Positions 2,587 through 33,524 of a DNA stretch of 48,100 nucleotides are shown here, one piece after another. The stretch lies in assembly GCA_016214345.1 (NCBI GenBank), contig JACROR010000011.1, forward strand, positions 1 to 48,100, written 5' to 3'. Under the pieces are notes generated by a model. The model was not told where the DNA came from. It searched no databases and saw nothing but the letters and a program-made list of their open reading frames with translations. Positions within the stretch are counted from its first letter, which is position 1. Each line of letters opens with the position of its first letter. The position numbers and the translations under genes are program-made. The stretch comes from Candidatus Niyogibacteria bacterium (GTDB lineage: Bacteria; Patescibacteriota; Minisyncoccia; JACROR01).

Positions 2587-3459
2587 ATGGCAACCCAACC
2601 TAAAGAAAAATATAAAACCATAACGCTGGATGAAAAGAGTTATCCGGCGCTGCTTCGTGAAATTCCCGACCCGCCTGAAACCCTCTACATGCTCGGCAAT
2701 TTCCATGATTGGCATAAACCCGCGATAGCGATCGTAGGCACCCGAAAAGCCACCTCTTACGGCCTGCGCGCGGCGCGCGCCCTCGGATGCGAATTGGCAG
2801 CCGCCGGCATAACCGTGGTAAGCGGACTCGCCCTGGGTATTGACGCGGAAGCGCACCGAGGCGCCTTGGAAGCGAACGGCAACACCGTCGCCGTTTTAGG
2901 GTCGGGCATAAACATGATCTATCCGGCGACCAATCGTCCACTCGCGGAAAAAATAATAGAGCAAGGCGGCGCTGTAATATCGGAATTTTCCCCAGATCTT
3001 CCGCCGGAAAAATGGACCTTCCCGCAAAGAAACCGCATAATCGCCGGATTATCAAACGTAACGCTCGTAATTGAGGCCCCGGAAAAAAGCGGCGCGCTTA
3101 TTACCGCTTACCTCGCGCTGGAATACAACCGCGAAGTCGCCGCCCTGCCCGGAGAAATAACTTCCCTCAATTCACAAGGCACGAACAAGCTCATAAAACT
3201 GGGAGCGGCTATAATAAGAAGTGCGGACGATGTGCTGGAACTCTTGGGATTAAACGCTCCTAATCCGAAAACTTTATTTGACAAATTGGACAAAATAGAA
3301 AATGTTATACTGCAATGCCTAAACAAACCGCAGAACAAAGATGAAATGCTTGACCTAACGCAATTGCCTGCAGACATATTAAATCAAAAATTGTCTTCGC
3401 TTGAATTAAAAGGCGCGATTAAAAATAACGGAGGATTATATGAAATTAGTAATAGTTGA
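2587..3459 (+). CDS. dprA: DNA-processing protein DprA
   Basis: YPALLREIPDPP, AIVGTRKATSYG, VSGLALGID, FPQRNRIIAGLS, EAPEKSGALITA. Confidence 0.97.
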   Translation: MATQPKEKYKTITLDEKSYPALLREIPDPPETLYMLGNFHDWHKPAIAIVGTRKATSYGLRAARALGCELAAAGITVVSGLALGIDAEAHRGALEANGNTVAVLGSGINMIYPATNRPLAEKIIEQGGAVISEFSPDLPPEKWTFPQRNRIIAGLSNVTLVIEAPEKSGALITAYLALEYNREVAALPGEITSLNSQGTNKLIKLGAAIIRSADDVLELLGLNAPNPKTLFDKLDKIENVILQCLNKPQNKDEMLDLTQLPADILNQKLSSLELKGAIKNNGGLYEISNS

Positions 3460-8611: not shown

Positions 8612-8754
8612 ATTTGTTCCCTGTTTGTCTAAACTCCCGTTTTGTCAAAGAGCGTAGCGATTTGTAACAAAACGCAATGCAGGGAGGCCGAAGGCCGAGT
8701 CGTAAGCAAGGCGATTGGTTACAAACAGCAATCCTGTAAGGGTTCGGAACGAAT
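8612..8754 (+). repeat. Multi-branched hairpin element in the tRNA spacer
   Basis: Nested helices 8612-20/8746-54, 8621-28/8721-28, 8633-36/8697-8700 and 8638-45/8667-74. 8633-8680 matches the reverse complement of 47953-48000 at 39/48 nt. Confidence 0.7.
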
Positions 8755-8818
8755 CTAATACCCCCTCATCTTTCAATGGATAGGATGCAAGCTTCCGAAG
8801 CTTGCGATGTAGGCCCGT

Positions 8819-8913
8819 CCCCACACTAATCCTCTTGTCGTTCAATGGACAGGACACCTCCCTCCGAAGGAGGAGATGCAGGTTCGATTCCTGCCGAGAG
8901 GATTAGTGTGGGG
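8819..8913. mobile_element. Inverted-repeat-bounded cassette carrying the inner tRNA
   Basis: CCCCACACTAAT (8819-8830) / ATTAGTGTGGGG (8902-8913); same repeat as at 32780/33076. Mobility is inferred. Confidence 0.6.
8831..8902 (+). tRNA. Inner intact tRNA-Arg(CCG)
   Basis: CCTCTTG/CGAGAGG acceptor, GTTC-AATGGACA-GGAC, CCTCC-CTCCGAA-GGAGG, GCAGG-TTCGATT-CCTGC, discriminator A. No encoded CCA. Confidence 0.93.
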
Positions 8914-8981
8914 GTGAGAATTCCTACTGAGGGGACAACAAAATAGGTTATAGTTTCTAGGTTATAACTTACGAGTGACAA

Positions 8982-10890: not shown

Positions 10891-12723
10891 CTATTCCACC
10901 GTTACGGATTTGGCCAAATTTCTCGGCTTATCCACATCCGCTCCGCGCGCTATCGCCATATGATACGCGAATAGTTGCAAAGGAATAACCGAAAGTATGG
11001 GCGAGATTGCCTCCGTCACTTTAGGCACAAAAATCACATCATCGGCGTGATTGCCGGTTTCTTTATCTCCATTCTCACATATGGCAATAATTTTACCGCG
11101 GCGCGCCTTAATTTCCTGCATATTGGACAAAGTTTTATCGTAAACGCTATCCCGCAAAGCAATAACCACCGATGGAAAATCTTTATCAATAACCGCAATA
11201 GGGCCGTGTTTCATCTCACCCGCCGGATAACCTTCAGCGTGCACATAAGATATTTCTTTTAATTTTAAAGCTCCCTCCAAGGCCACGGGCCAGCTGTATT
11301 TTCTGCCCAAATACAAAAAATTGGGAAATTTCTTGTAACGCCCGGCCATGGCCTTTATCTGGGCGTCCTGTTTCAAGATTTTCACTATCTTATCGGGAAG
11401 CGCGAGCATATCCGCCAATATAACCTTTGCCTGCTCCGAAGTCAGAAGCCTCATACGTCCTATGTAAACCGCCATAAGCGCGAGCACCACCAATTGCGAT
11501 ATGAAGGCTTTGGTGGAGGCCACGGCGATTTCCGGCCCCGCGTGATTATAAACTCCGGCGTGCACCTCGCGCGCTATGGTTGACCCCACGACATTCACGA
11601 TGCCTAAAGTCAAAAGTCCTTTTCGTTTGGCTTCTTTAATGGCCTCCAAGGTATCCGCGGTTTCTCCGGATTGGGAAATGGCGATTACGGCGGTATTTTT
11701 ATCCAACGGCAATGAATGGTAGCGAAACTCCGAAGCGTGCTCAACTTCAACGGGCACGCGCGCATATTCTTCAAAAAGATACTTGCCAACCAGCGCCGCG
11801 TAATAAGAAGTACCGCAAGCCACTATCACAAAACGGTTTACGTTATAGAGCCGCTCTTCCACCGGCTCCAAGCCGCCCAATTTCACTTCTCCATCTTTGT
11901 AAACTATTCTGCCACCTATGGTATTTTTAACCACCTGCGGAGCCTCAAAAATCTCTTTCTGCATAAAATGTTCAAATCCGCCTTTCTTGGATTCTTCTAT
12001 GTCCCAATCAATGGTATCAATGGTCTTATTAAGTTTCTTTTTGGAAAAATCAAAAATATCAAAACCGTCCGGAGTCAATACCACCATTTCATTATCATTT
12101 AAATAAATTACTTTTTTGGTGTGATTGACCACCGCGGCCGCGTCAGACGCCACGAAATATTCATCGTTTCCCACGCCAACTAAAAGTGGGGATCCGCGGC
12201 GCGCCGCGACCAACACATGAGGATTTTGAGAATCTATCACGGCAATGCCGAATGTTCCGGTCACATGGCGAAGCGCGTCTCGCACCGTGTCTTCCAGACT
12301 GCCCAATCCCAGTCCTCTCTCTATCAAATGCGCGAGCACTTCCGTATCGGTCGCGGAAATAAATTTATGTCCCTCGCGCGACAATACGCCCTTCAAAAAT
12401 TCATGATTTTCAATAATGCCGTTATGCACCACAAAAATCCGCTTATTGCAACAATGATGCGGATGCGCGTTGGCCACGGTAGGTTCGCCATGAGTCGCCC
12501 ATCTGGTATGGGCAATGGCGCAAGACGCGTTGGGAATAGAGCTTAATTTTTCCTCTAAAGACGCTATTTTACCGACAGATTTTTTTAAAAACGGATGAGA
12601 CAGATCGCTATGAAACCCAACTATGCCCGAAGAATCATAGCCACGGTATTCCAACCGCTTGATGCCTTCCAATGCCACCTTAATGGCGTTTTTTTTGCCT
12701 ATGTAACCGACTATTCCGCACAT
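10891..12723 (-). CDS. glmS: Glutamine--fructose-6-phosphate transaminase
   Basis: MCGIVG, LEYRGYDSSG, HTRWATHG, SQSGETADT, DKPRNLAKSVTVE. Confidence 0.99.
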   Translation of the reverse strand: MCGIVGYIGKKNAIKVALEGIKRLEYRGYDSSGIVGFHSDLSHPFLKKSVGKIASLEEKLSSIPNASCAIAHTRWATHGEPTVANAHPHHCCNKRIFVVHNGIIENHEFLKGVLSREGHKFISATDTEVLAHLIERGLGLGSLEDTVRDALRHVTGTFGIAVIDSQNPHVLVAARRGSPLLVGVGNDEYFVASDAAAVVNHTKKVIYLNDNEMVVLTPDGFDIFDFSKKKLNKTIDTIDWDIEESKKGGFEHFMQKEIFEAPQVVKNTIGGRIVYKDGEVKLGGLEPVEERLYNVNRFVIVACGTSYYAALVGKYLFEEYARVPVEVEHASEFRYHSLPLDKNTAVIAISQSGETADTLEAIKEAKRKGLLTLGIVNVVGSTIAREVHAGVYNHAGPEIAVASTKAFISQLVVLALMAVYIGRMRLLTSEQAKVILADMLALPDKIVKILKQDAQIKAMAGRYKKFPNFLYLGRKYSWPVALEGALKLKEISYVHAEGYPAGEMKHGPIAVIDKDFPSVVIALRDSVYDKTLSNMQEIKARRGKIIAICENGDKETGNHADDVIFVPKVTEAISPILSVIPLQLFAYHMAIARGADVDKPRNLAKSVTVE

Positions 12724-13812: not shown

Positions 13813-16218
13813 TTATATAACAATATTCACCAACCTGCCACGAACCACAATCACCTTTTTAGGATCCTTGCCCTCTAGTAGTTCTTTGATACGCGGCTGT
13901 TTCAAGGCAAATTCCCGCAAACCGTCCTCCCCCAAATCAGCGTCAACCTCTGCCTTGTCGCGCACCTTACCATTTATTTGAATAACAAGCTCATAAACTT
14001 CTTCTTTAACTAGTTCGGGATTATATTCCGGCCATTTTTCCGAATGTATGGAAGTTTTATGGCCAAGTTGCTCCCAAATTTCTTCGGCCATGTGCGGCGC
14101 GAACGGCGCCAATATTTTTATGAATAATTCGTAAACTCCGCGAGACAATTCTTCTTGTTCGTCCATAGCGTTGGTGAATATCATCAACTGCGATATGGCC
14201 GTATTGAACCTAAAACCCTCAATATCCTCGGAAACTTTTTTGATAGTTTGATGCGATAATTTTTCCATATTTCCGCCGGACTGAGAATCAATCAAATTAT
14301 TTTGCGCTCTCCACGCCTTTTCCAAAAATCTCCTGGCGCCGATAATACTCTCCGAACTCCAAGCCACCGTCTGGTCAAAGGGACCCATGAACATCTCATA
14401 AACGCGAAGCGTGTCGGCGCCATAAGCCTCCACGATATCATCAGGATTAACCACATTGCCGTAACGCTTGCTCATTTTTTTGCCGTCTTTCGCGGTGATC
14501 AATCCCACGTTCTGCAGCCGCGAAAACGGCTCCGGATGATCAACCACGCCCAGATCATACAAAAACTTGTGCCAAAAACGCGCGTAGATCAGATGGCGCG
14601 TGGCGTGTTCCGCTCCTCCCACGTAAACATCCACGGGCGACCAATATTTTTCTTTTTTCTTATCAACCAATTCCTTGCCATTTTGCGGATCAATATATCG
14701 CAAATAATACCAACTGGAACCGGCCCACTGGGGCATGGTGTTGGTTTCCCTCTTGCCTTTCCCACTACATTTGGGACATTTCACGTTTACCCACTCGGCA
14801 ATATTGGCAAGCGGAGATTCGCCCGTACCCATCGGCTCGTAAAACTTCACTTCCGGCAATTTAACCGGCAGATCGCTCTCCGGCACCGCTACCACTCCGC
14901 ATTTTTCACAATGGATAAGCGGGATGGGCTCGCCCCAATAACGCTGGCGCGAAAATACCCAATCGCGCAATTTGTATTTAACGGTTGTTTTTCCTCCCAC
15001 AAATTCAGTTATGGATTTTTTAGCTTTTTCCGCATCCATACCGTTAAATTTGCCCGAACTGACCAATTTACCATCTCCGATGTATGCGTCTTCCAACACG
15101 GGACATTTCGGTTCCGGATAAAACTGGCAGATTACTTGTTTAATCGGCAATTTAAATTTTTTGGCAAAAACCCAGTCACGCTCATCATGCGCCGGCACCG
15201 CCATAACCGCTCCGGTCCCATAATGCGCCAAAACGTAATCGGCTATAAAAATGGGTAGCTCCTCTCCATTGGCGGGATTGATCGCTTTCACGCCTTGCAG
15301 CTTCACTCCGGTTTTTTCTTTGTCTGCAGCCGTCCGTTCTATTTCAGGCTTATTTCTTGAAACCTCTATGTATTCCGCGGCTTTTTTCCAATTGTTTATT
15401 TCAGGCCGCAGCGCTTTCACCAATTCATGTTCCGGCGCGAGCGCCACGTAAGTCGCGCCGAAAAGCGTATCCGCTCTCGTGGTGAAAACTTTTATCTTAA
15501 AGTCCGTTCCTTTGATCGTGAAATCGATCTCCGCGCCCTCGGAACGGCCTATCCAATTTCTTTGCGATTCCTTGATGGATGCCGGCCAATTCAAACCTTC
15601 CAAGTCTTGGAGCAATCTATCGGCATAATCCGTGATCCGCAAAACCCACTGCCGTAACGGCCGTTTCTCAACGATACTACCGCATCTCTCACACTTGCCA
15701 CCCTCCAGATCTTCATTGGCCAACCCGGTTTTGCAAGACGGACACCAATTGATCGGCTCATGCGATTCATAAGCCAAACCACGCTCGAACAATTTCAAAA
15801 ATATCCACTGCGTCCACCGATAATATTCCGGATTCGTGGTATTGATCTCCCTATCCCAATCGTAATTAAATCCCAGCAATGATAATTGTTCCTTAAAGCG
15901 CGCGATGTTTTTTTTCACCGCTACGCGCGGATGGAGTTTATTTTTGATCGCGAAATTTTCCGCAGGAAGCCCGAAAGCATCCCAACCCATAGGATGCAAA
16001 ACGGCAAAACCGTTCATCCGCTTGAAGCGCGAGTAAATATCGCTCGCGAAATATCCTTTGGGATGCCCCACATGCAGGCCATCTCCGGAGGGATACGGGA
16101 ACATGTCCAAAACATAACTTTTAGGGCCCTTCAAAGTATCCGATATTTTATACAAACCGCTCTTTTCCCACGCCTCGCGCCATTTTTTTTCTATTTTTTT
16201 ATGATTATATTCAGCCAT
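13813..16218 (-). CDS. leuS: Leucine--tRNA ligase
   Basis: MFPYPSGDGLHVGH, MGWDAFGLPAEN, DWVFSRQRYWGEPIP, KMSKR. Confidence 0.99.
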   Translation of the reverse strand: MAEYNHKKIEKKWREAWEKSGLYKISDTLKGPKSYVLDMFPYPSGDGLHVGHPKGYFASDIYSRFKRMNGFAVLHPMGWDAFGLPAENFAIKNKLHPRVAVKKNIARFKEQLSLLGFNYDWDREINTTNPEYYRWTQWIFLKLFERGLAYESHEPINWCPSCKTGLANEDLEGGKCERCGSIVEKRPLRQWVLRITDYADRLLQDLEGLNWPASIKESQRNWIGRSEGAEIDFTIKGTDFKIKVFTTRADTLFGATYVALAPEHELVKALRPEINNWKKAAEYIEVSRNKPEIERTAADKEKTGVKLQGVKAINPANGEELPIFIADYVLAHYGTGAVMAVPAHDERDWVFAKKFKLPIKQVICQFYPEPKCPVLEDAYIGDGKLVSSGKFNGMDAEKAKKSITEFVGGKTTVKYKLRDWVFSRQRYWGEPIPLIHCEKCGVVAVPESDLPVKLPEVKFYEPMGTGESPLANIAEWVNVKCPKCSGKGKRETNTMPQWAGSSWYYLRYIDPQNGKELVDKKKEKYWSPVDVYVGGAEHATRHLIYARFWHKFLYDLGVVDHPEPFSRLQNVGLITAKDGKKMSKRYGNVVNPDDIVEAYGADTLRVYEMFMGPFDQTVAWSSESIIGARRFLEKAWRAQNNLIDSQSGGNMEKLSHQTIKKVSEDIEGFRFNTAISQLMIFTNAMDEQEELSRGVYELFIKILAPFAPHMAEEIWEQLGHKTSIHSEKWPEYNPELVKEEVYELVIQINGKVRDKAEVDADLGEDGLREFALKQPRIKELLEGKDPKKVIVVRGRLVNIVI

Positions 16219-16286: not shown

Positions 16287-16321
16287 CCATAATGTGCGTG
16301 ACTCGGTGACGCACATTATGG
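16287..16321. repeat. REP-like palindrome left of RAYT
   Basis: CCATAATGTGCGT-gactcggtg-ACGCACATTATGG. Confidence 0.88.
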
Positions 16322-16333
16322 TAAAATATCTCT

Positions 16334-16984
16334 ATGAGAAAATTTACTCCAGAAAAAGAAAATTTTTACCACATCGTAAATCGCGGAACCGAAAAACGAC
16401 GAATATTCCTGAATCACAAAGATTATGAAAGATTTATTGCCAATATGGTCGCCTTTAATACCGAAAACGATCCCCGACTTAATATTTCACGATATAATCT
16501 TAATAAAATTTTTCAGCACATCCCCACCAATCGGCTGGTTAAAATACATGCTTTCTGCCTACTACCGAACCACTTTCATTTATTATTAGAACAGTTGGCT
16601 GAAAACGGGATCTCTCGATTTATGCACAGATTAGAGATGGGCTATGCCAGATATTTTAATATTTTGCATAACAGAAACGGCAATCTTTTCCAGGGCGCAT
16701 ATAAATTGGTGCCAATGGAAGATGAGGCGCATCAATTATATTTACCTATTTATATCCACCTTAATCCGCTTGACTTGTTGCCGACTGAAAAACATTGGCG
16801 AGAAAATGGAATTAAAGATCACCACCAAGCCATGGCTTTTCTTAAAAAATATCCGTGGTCAAGTTTTACAGAATACTACGGAACTGGCAACCTCCCCTTC
16901 ATAAGCAAAGAATTACTAAATGATCTTTATAAAAATTCTGACGATTGGGATCGTGCAATAATGTCTTGGTCCTCCAAAAAGTAA
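16334..16984 (+). CDS. REP-associated tyrosine transposase (RAYT, HUH/Y1 family)
   Basis: YHIVNRG, AFCLLPNHFHLLL (HUH), GNLFQG, YIHLNP, YPWSS. AT-richer than its flanks. Confidence 0.92.
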   Translation: MRKFTPEKENFYHIVNRGTEKRRIFLNHKDYERFIANMVAFNTENDPRLNISRYNLNKIFQHIPTNRLVKIHAFCLLPNHFHLLLEQLAENGISRFMHRLEMGYARYFNILHNRNGNLFQGAYKLVPMEDEAHQLYLPIYIHLNPLDLLPTEKHWRENGIKDHHQAMAFLKKYPWSSFTEYYGTGNLPFISKELLNDLYKNSDDWDRAIMSWSSKK

Positions 16985-16995
16985 ATATCTTCTTA

Positions 16996-17028
16996 AAAAA
17001 TGTGCGTCACCGAGTCACGCACATTTTT
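16996..17028. repeat. REP-like palindrome right of RAYT (inverted copy)
   Basis: 16999-17025 is the exact reverse complement of 16291-16317 (27 nt). Confidence 0.88.
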
Positions 17029-18399: not shown

Positions 18400-18663
18400 T
18401 TATTCCAAAGACATGATCTGCAAACCGTTTTCTTCTATTTCCTTTTTCTGGCCAAAATCATCCGATTTGAAACGCAAAACATAACCAACTTTCTTTTCTA
18501 TTTTTCTGCCCGTATATCTAGAGGTTTGTGGATCCCACTCTTCAAGCATCAGTGTATCGCCTTCCGCCGCCTCAAAATCAGCCGTCCTTACTTCAAATTT
18601 TTTCTTGCCAAACGCCACCAGTTCAAAAAATTCCGGCCAAATTTTCTTTTTGATCAATGCCAT
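18400..18663 (-). CDS. DUF3850/ASCH-like (PUA fold) small protein
   Basis: KIWPEFFELV..GKKKFEVR..DF..GD.L.LEEWDP....YTGR; start overlaps the metG stop. Confidence 0.8.
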   Translation of the reverse strand: MALIKKKIWPEFFELVAFGKKKFEVRTADFEAAEGDTLMLEEWDPQTSRYTGRKIEKKVGYVLRFKSDDFGQKKEIEENGLQIMSLE

Positions 18664-20258
18664 TATTTAGACGCGGCCTCTTTATCCAATCGCGGGAAAA
18701 GTCCGACGTGATCTTTTACCGTAAAACTTTTCATTTTTTCCAAAGGCATATTGGGTGTTATGCCAAAAATATCAAATATTTTCGTAGCGGTTTCTGGCAT
18801 GAACGGCAGAAGCATCCGCGCCGCGGAGGACACTCCGTAAGCCAAGTTCCACAATACCGCCAGAGTTTTTTCCCGATCGGTTTTAACCAATTTAAACGGC
18901 TCGTAGTTCTGAACATAATGATCCAACTCTCCCACCAGCCGCCAAATTGCATCTCCCGCCTTTTGCAAATTCAGCTCGTTCATCGCGCGCTCATATTCCG
19001 GCAAAATGAATTTTTCTATCACATAATCAGCGCTGAAATATTCGGTTTCAAAACCTTCCTCTTTCGCGCTATCCGGCTGAAGTCCGATATTTTTTTTGAA
19101 AGGAACGGAGCTTATCAAATCCTCGTCCGGACGCGAAACCGCGCCATCGGCATACAACTTTATCATCTTGCTCGTCCTGCTCACTAAATTGCCAAGCCCG
19201 TTCGCCAAATTGGCATTATACGCGTCTCTTAATTTATCCTCGGTAAAATCGCCGTCTTCAAAAGTGGAAGTCTCCCGCAAAAGAAAATATCGCACCGCCT
19301 CCGCCCCGTATTTTCCAACCATCGCGAACGGGTCCACGACATTGCCAAGTGTTTTGGACATTTTCTGCCCGCCGGAAGTGATAAATCCATGAGCTACGAT
19401 CTTTTTGGGCAACGGCAAACCGGCGGATAAAAGCATCGCTGGCCAGATCGCGGCATGAAAGCGCAAAATATCCTTGCCGATCAAATGAATATCCGCTGGC
19501 CAAAAATTCTGAAACAATTCGTCATGGCCGCTGCCAAATCCCAGTGCCGAAATATAATTAGTGAGCGCGTCGCACCACACATACATGGTCTGCTCCGGAT
19601 CTTCCGGTACGGGAACACCCCAAGATATATCACGGGAAGGGCGGGAAAAACTCACATCCTCCAATCCTTCGGCAAGCAGAGCTAAAATTTCATTCTTACG
19701 GGACACGGGCACGATCTCCATCTCGCCCGACTCAACAGCGCTCTTTATCTTATCCGTGTATTTAGAAAGCCGGAAAAAGTAATTTTCTTCTTCAATGACT
19801 TCCGGCGCCTGCCCATGGTCCGCGCACTTTCCATCTATCAAATCTTTCTCCGTAATAAAAGCTTCGTGCCCCACGCAATAGAGTCCCTGATAAGATTTTT
19901 TGTAAATATCGCCTCTTTCCGCCAATTTTTTCCAGATCAGAACGGCCGCCGGCCAATGTCTCGCTTCATCCGAAGTACGTATGAAATCATTATTGGAAAT
20001 ATTTAAAGTACGCAACAAGTCGCGCACTTTCAAAGAATTTCCATCAACAAAATCACGGACCGGCACGCCCTCCTTTTCCGCCGAACGCGCGATCTTCGCG
20101 CCATGTTCATCCGTACCCGTTAAAAAATAAACCTCCTTGCCAAGAAGTTTATTATAACGGGCTATAACGTCGGCCATGGCCGCCTCTTTGGCAAAACCCA
20201 TGTGCGGAGGCGCATTTACGTAAGCGATGGCCGTAGTGATATAAAAATTTTTACTCAT
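18663..20258 (-). CDS. metG: Methionine--tRNA ligase
   Basis: FYITTAIAYVNAPPHMG, LTGTDEHG, YVWCDALTNY, IGKDILRFHA, KMSKT. Confidence 0.98.
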   Translation of the reverse strand: MSKNFYITTAIAYVNAPPHMGFAKEAAMADVIARYNKLLGKEVYFLTGTDEHGAKIARSAEKEGVPVRDFVDGNSLKVRDLLRTLNISNNDFIRTSDEARHWPAAVLIWKKLAERGDIYKKSYQGLYCVGHEAFITEKDLIDGKCADHGQAPEVIEEENYFFRLSKYTDKIKSAVESGEMEIVPVSRKNEILALLAEGLEDVSFSRPSRDISWGVPVPEDPEQTMYVWCDALTNYISALGFGSGHDELFQNFWPADIHLIGKDILRFHAAIWPAMLLSAGLPLPKKIVAHGFITSGGQKMSKTLGNVVDPFAMVGKYGAEAVRYFLLRETSTFEDGDFTEDKLRDAYNANLANGLGNLVSRTSKMIKLYADGAVSRPDEDLISSVPFKKNIGLQPDSAKEEGFETEYFSADYVIEKFILPEYERAMNELNLQKAGDAIWRLVGELDHYVQNYEPFKLVKTDREKTLAVLWNLAYGVSSAARMLLPFMPETATKIFDIFGITPNMPLEKMKSFTVKDHVGLFPRLDKEAASK

Positions 20259-32328: not shown

Positions 32329-32772
32329 ATGCCTACGCTGATACAAAACAAACGGGCGCATTTTGATTACGAGATCCTGGAAAAATTGGAAGCCGGTTTG
32401 GAATTGCGCGGCTTTGAAACCAAAGCGTTGAAAAACGGCATGGGAAGTCTGGTGGGTAGCCGCGTGCTTATCCGCGGCGGAGAGGCCTTTGTGGTCAATA
32501 TGGAAATAGCGCCCTACCAGCCGGCCAACGCGCCCAAAGATTACGACTCACGCGCTCCGCGGCGGCTGCTTTTACACAAAAAAGAAATAAGCTATCTGGA
32601 AGGCAAATCTCATGAGAAAGGCTTGACTTTGGTGCCAATTTCGTTGTATACTAAGGGCAATTTGATCAAGCTGGAATTCGGCGTGGGTCGCGGCAAGAAA
32701 AAATCCGACAAACGGGAAGCAATCCAAGAGCGTGAAACCAAACGCAAAATAGAGCGCACATTGAAATTGTAG
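32329..32772 (+). CDS. smpB: SsrA-binding protein SmpB
   Basis: NKRAHFDYEILEKLEAGLEL.G.E.K, RRLLLHKKEI, GLTLVP, GKKKSDKRE. Confidence 0.98.
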   Translation: MPTLIQNKRAHFDYEILEKLEAGLELRGFETKALKNGMGSLVGSRVLIRGGEAFVVNMEIAPYQPANAPKDYDSRAPRRLLLHKKEISYLEGKSHEKGLTLVPISLYTKGNLIKLEFGVGRGKKKSDKREAIQERETKRKIERTLKL

Positions 32773-32779
32773 GGTCTGA

Positions 32780-33076
32780 CCCCCACACTAATTAAGGATT
32801 TGAATCATGTTCTATGTTTATATATTACAAAGTTTGAAAGATAAACAATTATACATCGGCTACTCCGAAGATTTGAAACGCAGAATACAAGAACATGATT
32901 CAGGCAAAAATAAATCAACAAAATACCGAAGACCATTTAGACTGGTTTATTACGAGGCGTATCAATCGAAAATGGATGCGCAAAACAGAGAAACCAATTT
33001 AAAGCTTTTTGGTAGGGCGTTGGGAGGATTAAAGCGGAGAATTAAAATCAGCTTAAATCCTTAATTAGTGTGGGGG
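32780..33076. mobile_element. 22-bp inverted-repeat-bounded cassette carrying a GIY-YIG gene
   Basis: CCCCCACACTAATTAAGGATTT (32780-32801) / AAATCCTTAATTAGTGTGGGGG (33055-33076), a perfect inverted repeat. Mobility is inferred. Confidence 0.7.
32807..33064 (+). CDS. Stand-alone GIY-YIG nuclease
   Basis: FYVYILQS...LYIGYSEDLKRRIQEH..G...STKYRRP..LVYYE......A..RE..LK. Confidence 0.93.
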   Translation: MFYVYILQSLKDKQLYIGYSEDLKRRIQEHDSGKNKSTKYRRPFRLVYYEAYQSKMDAQNRETNLKLFGRALGGLKRRIKISLNP

Positions 33077-33416
33077 ATGATCGGCTTCGAAGGAGGTTTG
33101 ATAATTTTGCTTCAGGCAGAGCATGGCAACACAACTCTTTAAACTGATTGCCAAAAATCATTGCAAACAAACAACTTGCATACGCTTAACGCCTAAGGGC
33201 GTTTCGCCGTCCGCTTCGCTGACATCCTATACGCGAAACCGGGCGTAAACTTATAGGGTCTGATTCTGCGATGTCTCTAAACAGAATGACCAACAGAGGC
33301 AAACCTTTCCGGTTTTTGTCTGATTAACACCGTAAAGTTCTACCAATCAGTCTAAGTCTGTAAACCGCGAATTAAACAACCTTCTCACGCGGGTTCGATT
33401 CCCGCCGTCTCCACAA
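33073..33416 (+). ncRNA. ssrA: tmRNA
   Basis: GGGGATG/CGTCTCC acceptor with G3-U, T-arm GCGGG-TTCGATT-CCCGC, tag ORF ANKQLAYA* at 33163-33189, downstream of smpB. The 3' end reads ACAA. Confidence 0.93.
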
Positions 33417-33425
33417 GAATAACGA

Positions 33426-33443
33426 GTCCGCCAGCTGGCGGAC
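33426..33443. repeat. Palindrome GTCCGCCAGCTGGCGGAC
   Basis: Identical to 1460-1477. Confidence 0.85.
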
Positions 33444-33486
33444 GACTATATTTTTGTAGGATGTCGCGCTTTGCGCGGCGCCACAA

Positions 33487-33524
33487 ACAAAAAACAGCTC
33501 CGCTTTGGCGGAGCTGTTTTTTGT
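33487..33524 (+). terminator. Intrinsic terminator after tmRNA
   Basis: ACAAAAAACAGCTCCGC-tttg-GCGGAGCTGTTTTTTGT. Confidence 0.8.

Follow-up and report, generated by a model that had tools for sequence, protein, structure and literature searches.

How can a nuclease gene settle on the first nucleotides of a transfer-messenger RNA (tmRNA) gene and leave that gene intact? The question is raised by the smpB-ssrA locus of a tiny groundwater bacterium, Candidatus Niyogibacteria bacterium (assembly GCA_016214345.1), where a perfect inverted repeat encloses a small gene of the GIY-YIG superfamily and runs into the 5′ end of ssrA, the tmRNA gene. The locus lies in a stretch of 48,100 nt (contig JACROR010000011.1, the window), which is contig C3 of the source genome (G000; 691 kb, 32 contigs, G+C ~45%). 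The relatives of G000 are metagenome-assembled genomes (MAGs) of the Patescibacteria, or candidate phyla radiation (CPR). The answer judged best, with confidence a little above even, is that the feature is a ~300-bp selfish cassette carrying a minimal GIY-YIG nuclease, one of a family of palindromic elements. These resemble repetitive extragenic palindromes (REPs) and their REP-associated tyrosine transposases (RAYTs), and would be tolerated since the stem lets RNA processing remove them. The family spans this Patescibacteria class and wider Patescibacteria MAGs.

The arms of the repeat, at 32780-32801 and 33055-33076, are each 22 nt long, 100% complementary and 253 nt apart. An open reading frame (ORF) for 85 amino acids (32807-33064, on the + strand like all features of the locus) lies between them, its 258 nt filling the whole 253-nt loop. 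The left arm carries a Shine-Dalgarno (SD)-like AAGGA at 32794-32798, 8 nt ahead of the ATG (32807-32809), and the TAA stop (33062-33064) lies within the right arm. The original prediction had described this repeat, the SD-like element and the stop codon, and each of these points was confirmed. Both ARAGORN and Rfam start the tmRNA at 33073, so its nucleotides 1-4 are the final four Gs of the right arm, as had also been claimed. The gene (33073-33416) encodes the tag ANKQLAYA*, and is covered by ARAGORN at 33073-33414 and by the full length of Rfam model RF00023 (model positions 1-374, 118.9 bits). A second perfect stem, of 13 bp, pairs 32801-32813, over the ATG, with 32890-32902, within the ORF. 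It was found by the repeat search, forms in the minimum free energy (MFE) fold and recurs in G108, a genome from a different family of the class.

Upstream lies smpB (32329-32772, 147 aa; PF01668, E=3e-46), a host gene which usually abuts ssrA. At its end stands GGGTCTGA (32772-32779), an orphan imperfect copy of the tmRNA 5′ end located upstream of the insert and identical in G108. The outer end of the left arm, CCCCCACAC, is the motif of the family. The 12-nt CCCCACACTAAT is found four times in the window (8819, 32781 and, on the - strand, 8902 and 33064), against 0.13 expected, and four copies were reached in 0 of 100 shuffles. This bears out the claim that the arm is shared with a nested-tRNA cassette, a sister element (8819-8913, + strand) whose 12-nt arms surround a tRNA-Arg(CCG) and which is itself lodged in an outer tRNA-Arg(CCG)-like sequence, at the T-loop. 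The hexamer TGTAGG had been noted ahead of both cassettes, and is indeed present there (8808-8813 and 32768-32773), but it did not hold as a shared target motif. In the window it is the smpB stop codon plus GGG, the G108 cassette is preceded by TGTAAAGGGG, and a second nested tRNA is preceded by TGTGGG. Its presence at both cassettes looks coincidental. No self-splicing intron was found at the cassette, the Rfam matches in the window being the tmRNA and tRNAs only.

Comparison with relatives indicates that the cassette is a lineage-specific insertion at ssrA. A search of 41 relatives with the smpB-to-ssrA DNA gave three informative junctions. G003, from the same family, contains the smpB stop, then TAAAAAAAC as a 9-nt spacer and then GGGGATGATCGG. 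Deletion of 32775-33075 from the window yields GGGGATGA, the same as this cassette-free junction, as the original prediction had proposed for a restored tmRNA start. The spacer of G002 is 51 nt with a small hairpin. That of G001, from the same genus, is ~127-128 nt. It contains another 13-bp hairpin, and here too the right arm ends in the Gs of the tmRNA. Among 24 further class genomes with an ARAGORN-called tmRNA, the upstream ORF ends -21 to +98 nt from ssrA in 21; the remaining three are G001 (127 nt), a doubtful start call and a locus at a contig edge. A leader hairpin of at least 10 bp overlapping the tmRNA start was not found in 23 of these 24 genomes, G001 being the exception. As almost no gap normally separates ssrA from smpB, the cassette must lie in the precursor unless it has a promoter of its own. 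A DNA contig of run X3, from another groundwater study, joins 32768 to 33071; it was considered as an excision product and rejected, as its extra length fits the 128-nt spacer of a relative's G001-type allele.

The same cassette occupies the same ssrA site in G108. Nucleotide identity between the window and G108 is 249/297 in the cassette, 294/444 in smpB and 207/342 in the tmRNA, and the left arm is the same at 22/22 positions. Within the inner stem a C>T on one strand is matched by a G>A at its partner, one compensatory pair. A recent transfer between the two genomes, considered from the 84% identity of the cassette versus 66% for smpB and 60% for the tmRNA, was dropped on the synonymous divergence (pS), which is 0.61 in the cassette ORF and 0.65 in smpB. 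The higher identity of the cassette is attributed to constraint on the protein and the arms. The ORF has a dN/dS of 0.065 between the two genomes, and both the protein and the primary sequence of the arms are evidently under strong purifying selection. Contigs of run X2 match with zero mismatches within the ORF (32887-33037) and across the junction of right arm and tmRNA (33061-33211); X2 shares a study with the probable source sample and is not independent of it. An assembly artefact is disfavoured because G108 is an independent assembly and the X2 contigs are free of mismatches.

A common design is seen beyond ssrA. Seven tRNA-adjacent hairpin cassettes were examined (L028, L029, L030, L036, L156, G000 C1 and G000 C8:18273), and all seven have one layout: an orphan copy of tRNA nucleotides ~1-10, the left arm, the cargo, the right arm and the intact tRNA. 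The left arm opens with the complement of the first 3-5 nt of the tRNA, and the right arm ends in those 3-5 nt. The orphan pieces are exact direct repeats of 5-11 nt at each of the seven. The ssrA cassette has this layout too, though its repeat is imperfect (GGG(G)TCTGA versus GGGGATGA). Compared with the insertion point implied by the original prediction, a position at tmRNA or tRNA nucleotides ~4-10 fits better, the 5′ end being regenerated by the right arm.

The GIY-YIG ORF family was found in 164 of the 201 genomes surveyed for the class, with 1-16 matches each. Of the best 30 loci, 19 are bracketed by a perfect repeat of 13 bp or more. With 80 more public GIY loci added, an inverted-repeat score of at least 26 was reached by 41/111 analysable loci versus 0/111 in the reversed control, and in 31 of those 41 the right arm starts no later than the last base of the stop codon. 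A tRNA or tmRNA gene lies within 200 nt on the same strand in 54 of 115 GIY matches, on the opposite strand in one and on neither in 60. The 54 divide into 24 with the gene starting at most 60 nt downstream, seven at 61-200 nt and 23 with it at most 200 nt upstream. The expected association with tRNA and tmRNA genes was found in this way to be far above chance. Two of 20 loci scanned with Rfam lie inside 23S. With a second arm type, (ATG)CCC(C)GTAG.., the GIY-YIG cassettes stand precisely on the start codons of protein genes, the right arm rebuilding the ATG (L041, L044, L048, L095, L098, L114, L136, L138 and others).

Within G000, the arms recur without the nuclease. CCC[CG]CACACTAAT ends bracket five elements: the ssrA cassette, the 95-nt unit around tRNA-Arg(CCG) (window 8819-8913), a 130-nt hairpin at a 16S hairpin tip (Rfam model position ~458), a 134-nt hairpin at a 23S hairpin tip (model position ~1763) and a 127-nt hairpin 116 nt upstream of a tRNA-Met. 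A census of perfect inverted repeats in the whole genome (arms of at least 10 nt, spacer of at most 450) recovered 28 with a left arm starting CCC-N1-3-CAC, and 0 and 1 with two control patterns. The family end consensus is CCC(C)-N-CAC ... GTG-N-(G)GGG. Thirteen of the 28 are at stable-RNA loci. Three of these are in 16S, two in 23S, one beside 5S and one in an rRNA spacer; three enclose whole tRNAs (Gln, Arg-CCG, Arg-TCT), and three abut the 5′ ends of tRNA-Ala, the tmRNA and tRNA-Phe. The other repeats are intergenic, some of them terminator-like. From model positions, we take the rRNA helices concerned to be 23S H63 and 16S h10, h17 and h44. G001 has 99%-identical flanks in its 16S with GTCTTCGGAT in place of the G000 hairpin, so at least that 16S copy was recently gained by G000. 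At the 16S site the helix tip is replaced and there is no direct repeat. GTAG or TTAG often precedes the left arm at tRNA sites, where it corresponds to tRNA U8-A9-G10; this is not seen at rRNA or ssrA sites. The original prediction of a nuclease-bearing member of an element family is upheld by the five shared ends. Its restriction to tRNA-like genes is not, since 16S and 23S helix tips, protein-gene ATGs and ordinary intergenic DNA are also occupied.

The pairing of nuclease and palindrome is repeated by a second gene of G000. A 59%-identical GIY-YIG paralog was located by tblastn at C1:14285-14533, bracketed by CCCCTCACCCAGAAAGCCTTT arms, the last Gs of which are the first nucleotides of tRNA-Ala(TGC). 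Its 21-nt arms also bracket 195-nt non-coding elements at C4:19581 and C11:9537, with a 95% version at C4:28468, and the interiors of these elements are unrelated to the ORF. Shorter CCCCTCACCCAG hairpins are present at ~10 further sites of G000. Each of the two arm variants, CCCCCACACTAAT ends and CCCCTCACCCAG, has one nuclease-bearing copy and several non-coding copies. Terminal inverted repeats are therefore common to coding and non-coding copies, as in miniature inverted-repeat transposable elements. Each of the four GIY-YIG ORFs in G000 has a same-strand tRNA or tmRNA gene no more than ~120 nt away. When C6:5467-5650 is joined with C1:14588-14190 at the contig ends, the spacer of the rRNA operon shows a non-coding hairpin and the second GIY-YIG cassette in tandem before tRNA-Ala, each preceded by its own tRNA-Ala 5′ piece. 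This tandem points to repeated insertion at one site.

Across the class, the non-coding hairpins accompany the nuclease. The pattern CCCCNCAC-N20-170-GTGNGGGG, the spacing of which is too short to take in a nuclease cassette, matches 85 of the 201 genomes with up to 34 copies per genome, compared with 0-2 for the reversed control. Hairpins are present in 83/164 GIY-positive versus 2/37 GIY-negative genomes (odds ratio 17.9, p=7e-8, Fisher), a p value which overstates the association as the genomes are related. The 37 GIY-negative genomes are spread over many families, and the reversed control pattern does not differ between the groups (16/164 versus 3/37). Among the hairpins listed, GIY and non-coding arms of one genome look alike in G122, G196, G010, G004 and G006, and not in G108, G173, G062, G003 and G104. 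The arm sharing and the co-occurrence suggest that the nuclease may move the elements.

Some elements carry whole tRNA genes. The tRNA-Leu(TAG) of G001 (C10:24387-24493, L071) is enclosed exactly by CCCCACACTAAT and ATTAGTGTGGGG. The orthologous tRNA-Leu of G000 (C28:1212-1296) has no arms and differs strongly in the acceptor, variable and T arms; the adjoining tRNA-Gly differs at a single position between the two genomes. It looks as if a cassette-borne tRNA-Leu replaced the resident gene in G001. G000 has two nested cases. In both, the armed tRNA-Arg shares its anticodon with the outer sequence whose T-loop holds it: CCG (window 8750-8935) and TCT (C8:18616-18716, within the region 18558-18740). 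The right flank is TGAGAATTCCTAC in both. Further armed tRNAs are found in G154, G104 and G012, and the set suggests that tRNA genes may be exchangeable as cassette cargo.

The protein itself is small. The 85-aa ORF matches PF01541 (GIY-YIG) with E=7.9e-17 and 61.8 bits against a cut-off of 22.6, and no NCBIfam profile scores above its own cut-off for it. The nearest solved relatives are the UPF0213 proteins 1zg2 (E=4e-10) and 1ywl. Conservation in 107 homologs is 0.99 at Y5, 0.99 at Y16, 1.00 at G18, 1.00 at R26, 0.99 at H30 and 0.99 at E62, and K66 is also conserved in at least 99%. The two Tyr, the Gly, Arg, His and Glu make up the conserved core, in which the catalytic residues would lie. 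GIY-YIG is the only domain found in the cassette, which contains no transposase of a known family. Slx1 enzymes are structure-specific, a property which would suit a palindrome able to extrude as a hairpin or cruciform. Domain-only prokaryotic proteins were placed in the Slx1 branch in the classification of Dunin-Horkawicz et al. (2006, PMC1564403), and the 85-aa protein would belong among them. It is assigned to the GIY-YIG superfamily, in the minimal UPF0213 or bacterial Slx1-like branch, with predicted nuclease activity.

How ssrA would survive the insert is suggested by the predicted RNA fold. In the MFE fold of 32765-33420 (-187 kcal/mol, z=-4.8) both stems form and the tmRNA acceptor stem does not. 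The repeat helix had been expected to compete with the acceptor stem, and in the predicted fold of the precursor it prevails. A long stem-loop is likewise present as an insert in the ssrA, 16S and 23S transcripts, as with intervening sequences (IVSs), and G000 encodes RNase III. A promoter-like TTGACT-18-TATACT within smpB (32623-32652, 10/12 matches) is a candidate ssrA promoter, weak and also coding. The form TTGAC[TA]-18-TATACT is kept in the 3′ part of smpB in G001, G002, G003 and G108; it may act as the ssrA promoter, or may reflect no more than the conservation of an SmpB coding motif. The cassette has one weak promoter match of 9/12, at 33020-33048.

The following course of events is proposed. 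The cassette would insert within the first nucleotides of ssrA, where the GGGG of its right arm rebuilds the tmRNA 5′ end, and the displaced original piece GGGTCTGA would be left upstream as an orphan. ssrA is kept intact because the right arm supplies nucleotides 1-4. With smpB and ssrA normally almost fused, their precursor transcript most likely includes the cassette. Pairing of the arms in this precursor would join the ends of the insert; a double-strand RNase (RNase III) would cut the long stem and RNase P would trim the product to mature tmRNA. Once the right arm has been transcribed, pairing would bury the SD, the AUG (through the inner 13-bp stem) and the stop codon, resulting in low translation of the nuclease. 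At the DNA level, the nuclease may cut target genes or the hairpin or cruciform ends. Such cutting could spread the nuclease cassettes and the non-coding or tRNA-carrying hairpins with the same ends, as is thought for RAYT with REP/REPIN; the arm sharing and co-occurrence argue for this.

Several observations weigh against a selfish cassette of this kind. GIY-YIG enzymes are not known to act as transposases, and G000 has genes for 5-6 Y1 (RAYT-like) transposases as well. The 5-11 bp direct repeats of the tRNA sites are not seen at rRNA sites. Besides the inflated Fisher value, G108 has the cassette and no such hairpins. G011 has 15 CCCCACACTAAT arms, the sole pair of which at cassette spacing lacks a GIY ORF; its one GIY cassette with arms read carries other arms, CCCCCACACCTTT. 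The pair in question (G011:C25, 313 nt apart) was considered as a third GIY cassette and proved to be two adjacent non-coding hairpins. Contigs of the RNA runs X4 and X6 cover only 33100-33414, the tmRNA body, and are ~95% alike, so they come from relatives. In a sense-strand wobble test on 57 distinct imperfect arms there was no excess of G:U (G:T) over A:C (31 versus 27, p=0.69), and selection on the sense RNA is thus not singled out. The pS of the cassette is close to that of the flanking smpB, so old vertical descent with losses is possible, and lasting purifying selection on a single-site ORF also fits a host-useful gene.

A wider proposal is held tentatively, at clearly less than even confidence. 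It states that the Slx1/UPF0213-type GIY-YIG protein is a dedicated mobiliser of REP/REPIN-like palindromes in Patescibacteria. These would colonise tRNA and tmRNA 5′ ends, rRNA helix tips and start codons by rebuilding the ends, some carrying tRNA genes that replace or nest in the resident isoacceptor. If true, this would be the first REP/REPIN-like system without a Y1 transposase basis, and tRNA genes would become mobile cargo.

The alternative which survives best, though it is doubtful, is a free-standing homing endonuclease gene. The enzyme would cut only cassette-free alleles of the same tRNA or tmRNA gene, and repair of the break would copy the cassette; the palindrome would be an RNA-level insulator, and the non-coding hairpins unrelated or a decayed by-product. 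As in homing genes, the host gene of the nuclease ORF is conserved and essential, and relatives hold cassette-free alleles of it; the identical site is filled in two families. The SD and AUG are sequestered in the predicted fold, as is usual for tightly controlled homing endonuclease genes. In addition, GIY-YIG ORFs of CPR rRNA inserts have already been classed with homing endonucleases in the main text of Tsurumaki et al. (2024, PMC11270868). However, the non-coding elements have the same 13-21 nt arms around unrelated cargo, and so are not simple deletion derivatives. They occupy many non-homologous sites, and the hairpins are nearly confined to GIY-positive genomes. The 85-aa protein, of the minimal Slx1/UPF0213 type, is also without a DNA-binding extension, unlike the long site-specific GIY-YIG homing enzymes.

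An unlikely explanation is that the host keeps the GIY-YIG protein as a domesticated processing factor. Recognition of CCCC-N-CAC stems, whether RNA or DNA, would let it remove or resolve them, a task made necessary by hairpins in rRNA, tRNA and tmRNA genes. The family is carried by 164/201 class genomes, the arms of G000 and G108 agree at 100%, and the dN/dS of 0.065 was maintained over near-saturated synonymous divergence at a single fixed site. A prokaryotic Slx1-like domain fused to a tRNA methyltransferase, with a suggested role in RNA metabolism, was noted by Dunin-Horkawicz et al. (PMC1564403). A host function of this kind is countered by the patchy sites, the 0-16 matches per genome and the closest relatives being without the ssrA copy. 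To our knowledge, RNase activity is not known for the GIY-YIG fold.

Slightly less probable again is that the palindromes are REP-like and moved by the Y1 (RAYT-like) transposases of G000, with the GIY-YIG ORF as passive cargo. G000 has five Y1_Tnp matches over the cut-off, one weaker match below it and many other palindrome families. Yet the five Y1 genes over the cut-off adjoin other palindromes (e.g. ..ATGTGCGT.., ACTTGGAGG.., CTACATAAGT..) and not CCC-N-CAC arms, and the CCC-N-CAC hairpins track GIY-YIG presence in the comparison of GIY-positive with GIY-negative genomes. One Y1_Tnp (PF01797) RAYT-like ORF is in the window at 16367-16759 (+), with hairpins at 16287-16321 and 16996-17028 (..ATGTGCGT / ACGCACAT..); the other four matches over the cut-off each stand beside a different palindrome family. 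Finally, the smpB-ssrA operon might have evolved a regulatory or processing hairpin locally, which encloses the ORF by chance, with nothing mobile. This would agree with the predicted stability of the stem and with the small hairpins just upstream of ssrA in G001 and G002. It is made very improbable by the 13 nt which the arms share with four other G000 loci, by the nearest relatives without the cassette and by the other class genomes, of which 23 of 24 lack a leader hairpin that reaches over the tmRNA start.

Among known systems, the closest mechanistic analogue of the cassette is REP/RAYT (Di Nocera et al. 2013, PMC3733652), and a relationship of this type between nuclease and palindromes is favoured. 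Both have many short palindromes per genome with dispersed non-coding copies (28 perfect ones in G000 and up to 34 pattern matches elsewhere), a single-copy nuclease gene between inverted copies of the same palindrome, and different nuclease paralogs paired with different palindrome variants in one genome. The enzyme here is GIY-YIG, in contrast to a Y1/HUH transposase, and an unpaired GTAG/CGTC tag is not clearly present. Stable-RNA genes, and not the regions downstream of ORFs, hold many of the copies, and some copies carry whole tRNA genes.

In their survey of CPR rRNA inserts (2024, J Bacteriol, PMC11270868), Tsurumaki et al. met GIY-YIG ORFs only where the insert was not an intron of group I or II. 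The survey also described many short (<200 bp) uncharacterised inserts at stem-loop tips, some suggested to be RNase III IVSs. The GIY loci in 23S, two of 30, and five hairpins in G000 rRNAs are similar to these. The terms 'inverted repeat', 'hairpin', 'palindrom' and 'tRNA' are all absent from its main text (supplements not covered). In contrast to the present work, no description of shared arms, insertions at tRNA and tmRNA 5′ ends, tRNA cargo or a link to genome-wide hairpins was found there.

The rRNA IVSs are likewise long stem-loops at helix tips, sporadic and sometimes with an ORF, in a host encoding RNase III. Classical IVS sites are helices 25 and 45 of 23S. Unlike IVSs, the elements described here also stand at the 5′ ends of tRNA, tmRNA and protein genes, and their excision is only proposed. 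Free-standing GIY-YIG homing genes, such as those for the phage T4 Seg proteins, and I-TevI share with the cassette a nuclease gene in or beside a conserved gene and a patchy distribution. The translation signals of I-TevI are buried in a hairpin, similar to the SD and AUG stems of the cassette. They differ in that the cassette protein is an 85-aa minimal domain without a DNA-binding module, inside a palindromic bracket, with non-coding sisters and no intron found. Integrative elements targeting tRNA or tmRNA genes also leave a direct repeat of the gene's end and supply a replacement end, but the cassette replaces the 5′ and not the 3′ end, measures 0.1-0.3 kb and not kilobases, and has no integrase.

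No description of GIY-YIG cassettes with conserved palindromic ends at tRNA or tmRNA 5′ ends was found in the literature (supplements not covered), and searches for GIY-YIG with tmRNA or tRNA-gene inverted repeats returned organelle and phage work only. The palindrome-bracketed GIY-YIG family is apparently undescribed, and combines features of REP/RAYT-like palindromes, homing cassettes and IVSs with an end-regenerating insertion into stable-RNA genes.

Three further observations on stable RNAs and repeats were made. A conserved trailer of ~75 nt (..GAGTCCGCC..GGCGGACGACTATATTTTTGTAGGATG.CGC..GCGGCGCCACAA) follows the 3′ end of three alanine-type RNA genes, the tmRNA (window 33424-33490), tRNA-Ala(TGC) (G000 C1 ~14100-14190, -) and tRNA-Ala(GGC) (G000 C8 ~3130-3215, -). 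Another repeat family, ..CCACACTAATGA[CT]CCATACC.., adjoins hairpins of 13-15 bp (GAAACAAG.AGAG) at window 43257 and at G000 C12:29343, C18:5917, C23:3255 and C5:1585. Just past the 3′ end of the 23S match, at L002 6923-7059 (-), equal to G000 C21 ~11922-12058, there is a match to a group I intron that is weak (33.7 bits) and falls under the gathering score.

Bacteria very commonly have small stand-alone GIY-YIG (UPF0213) proteins, for which no assigned function was found. They are now tied to a DNA partner, the CCC-N-CAC palindrome, and to targets: tRNA and tmRNA nucleotides ~4-10, rRNA helix tips and start codons. This would help to explain the frequent non-intron rRNA inserts of CPR bacteria, which were left uncharacterised in the 2024 survey. 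It would also mean that, with no ribozyme, a selfish element can inhabit essential RNA genes in a 0.7-Mb genome: it regenerates the end of the gene and folds out of the way.

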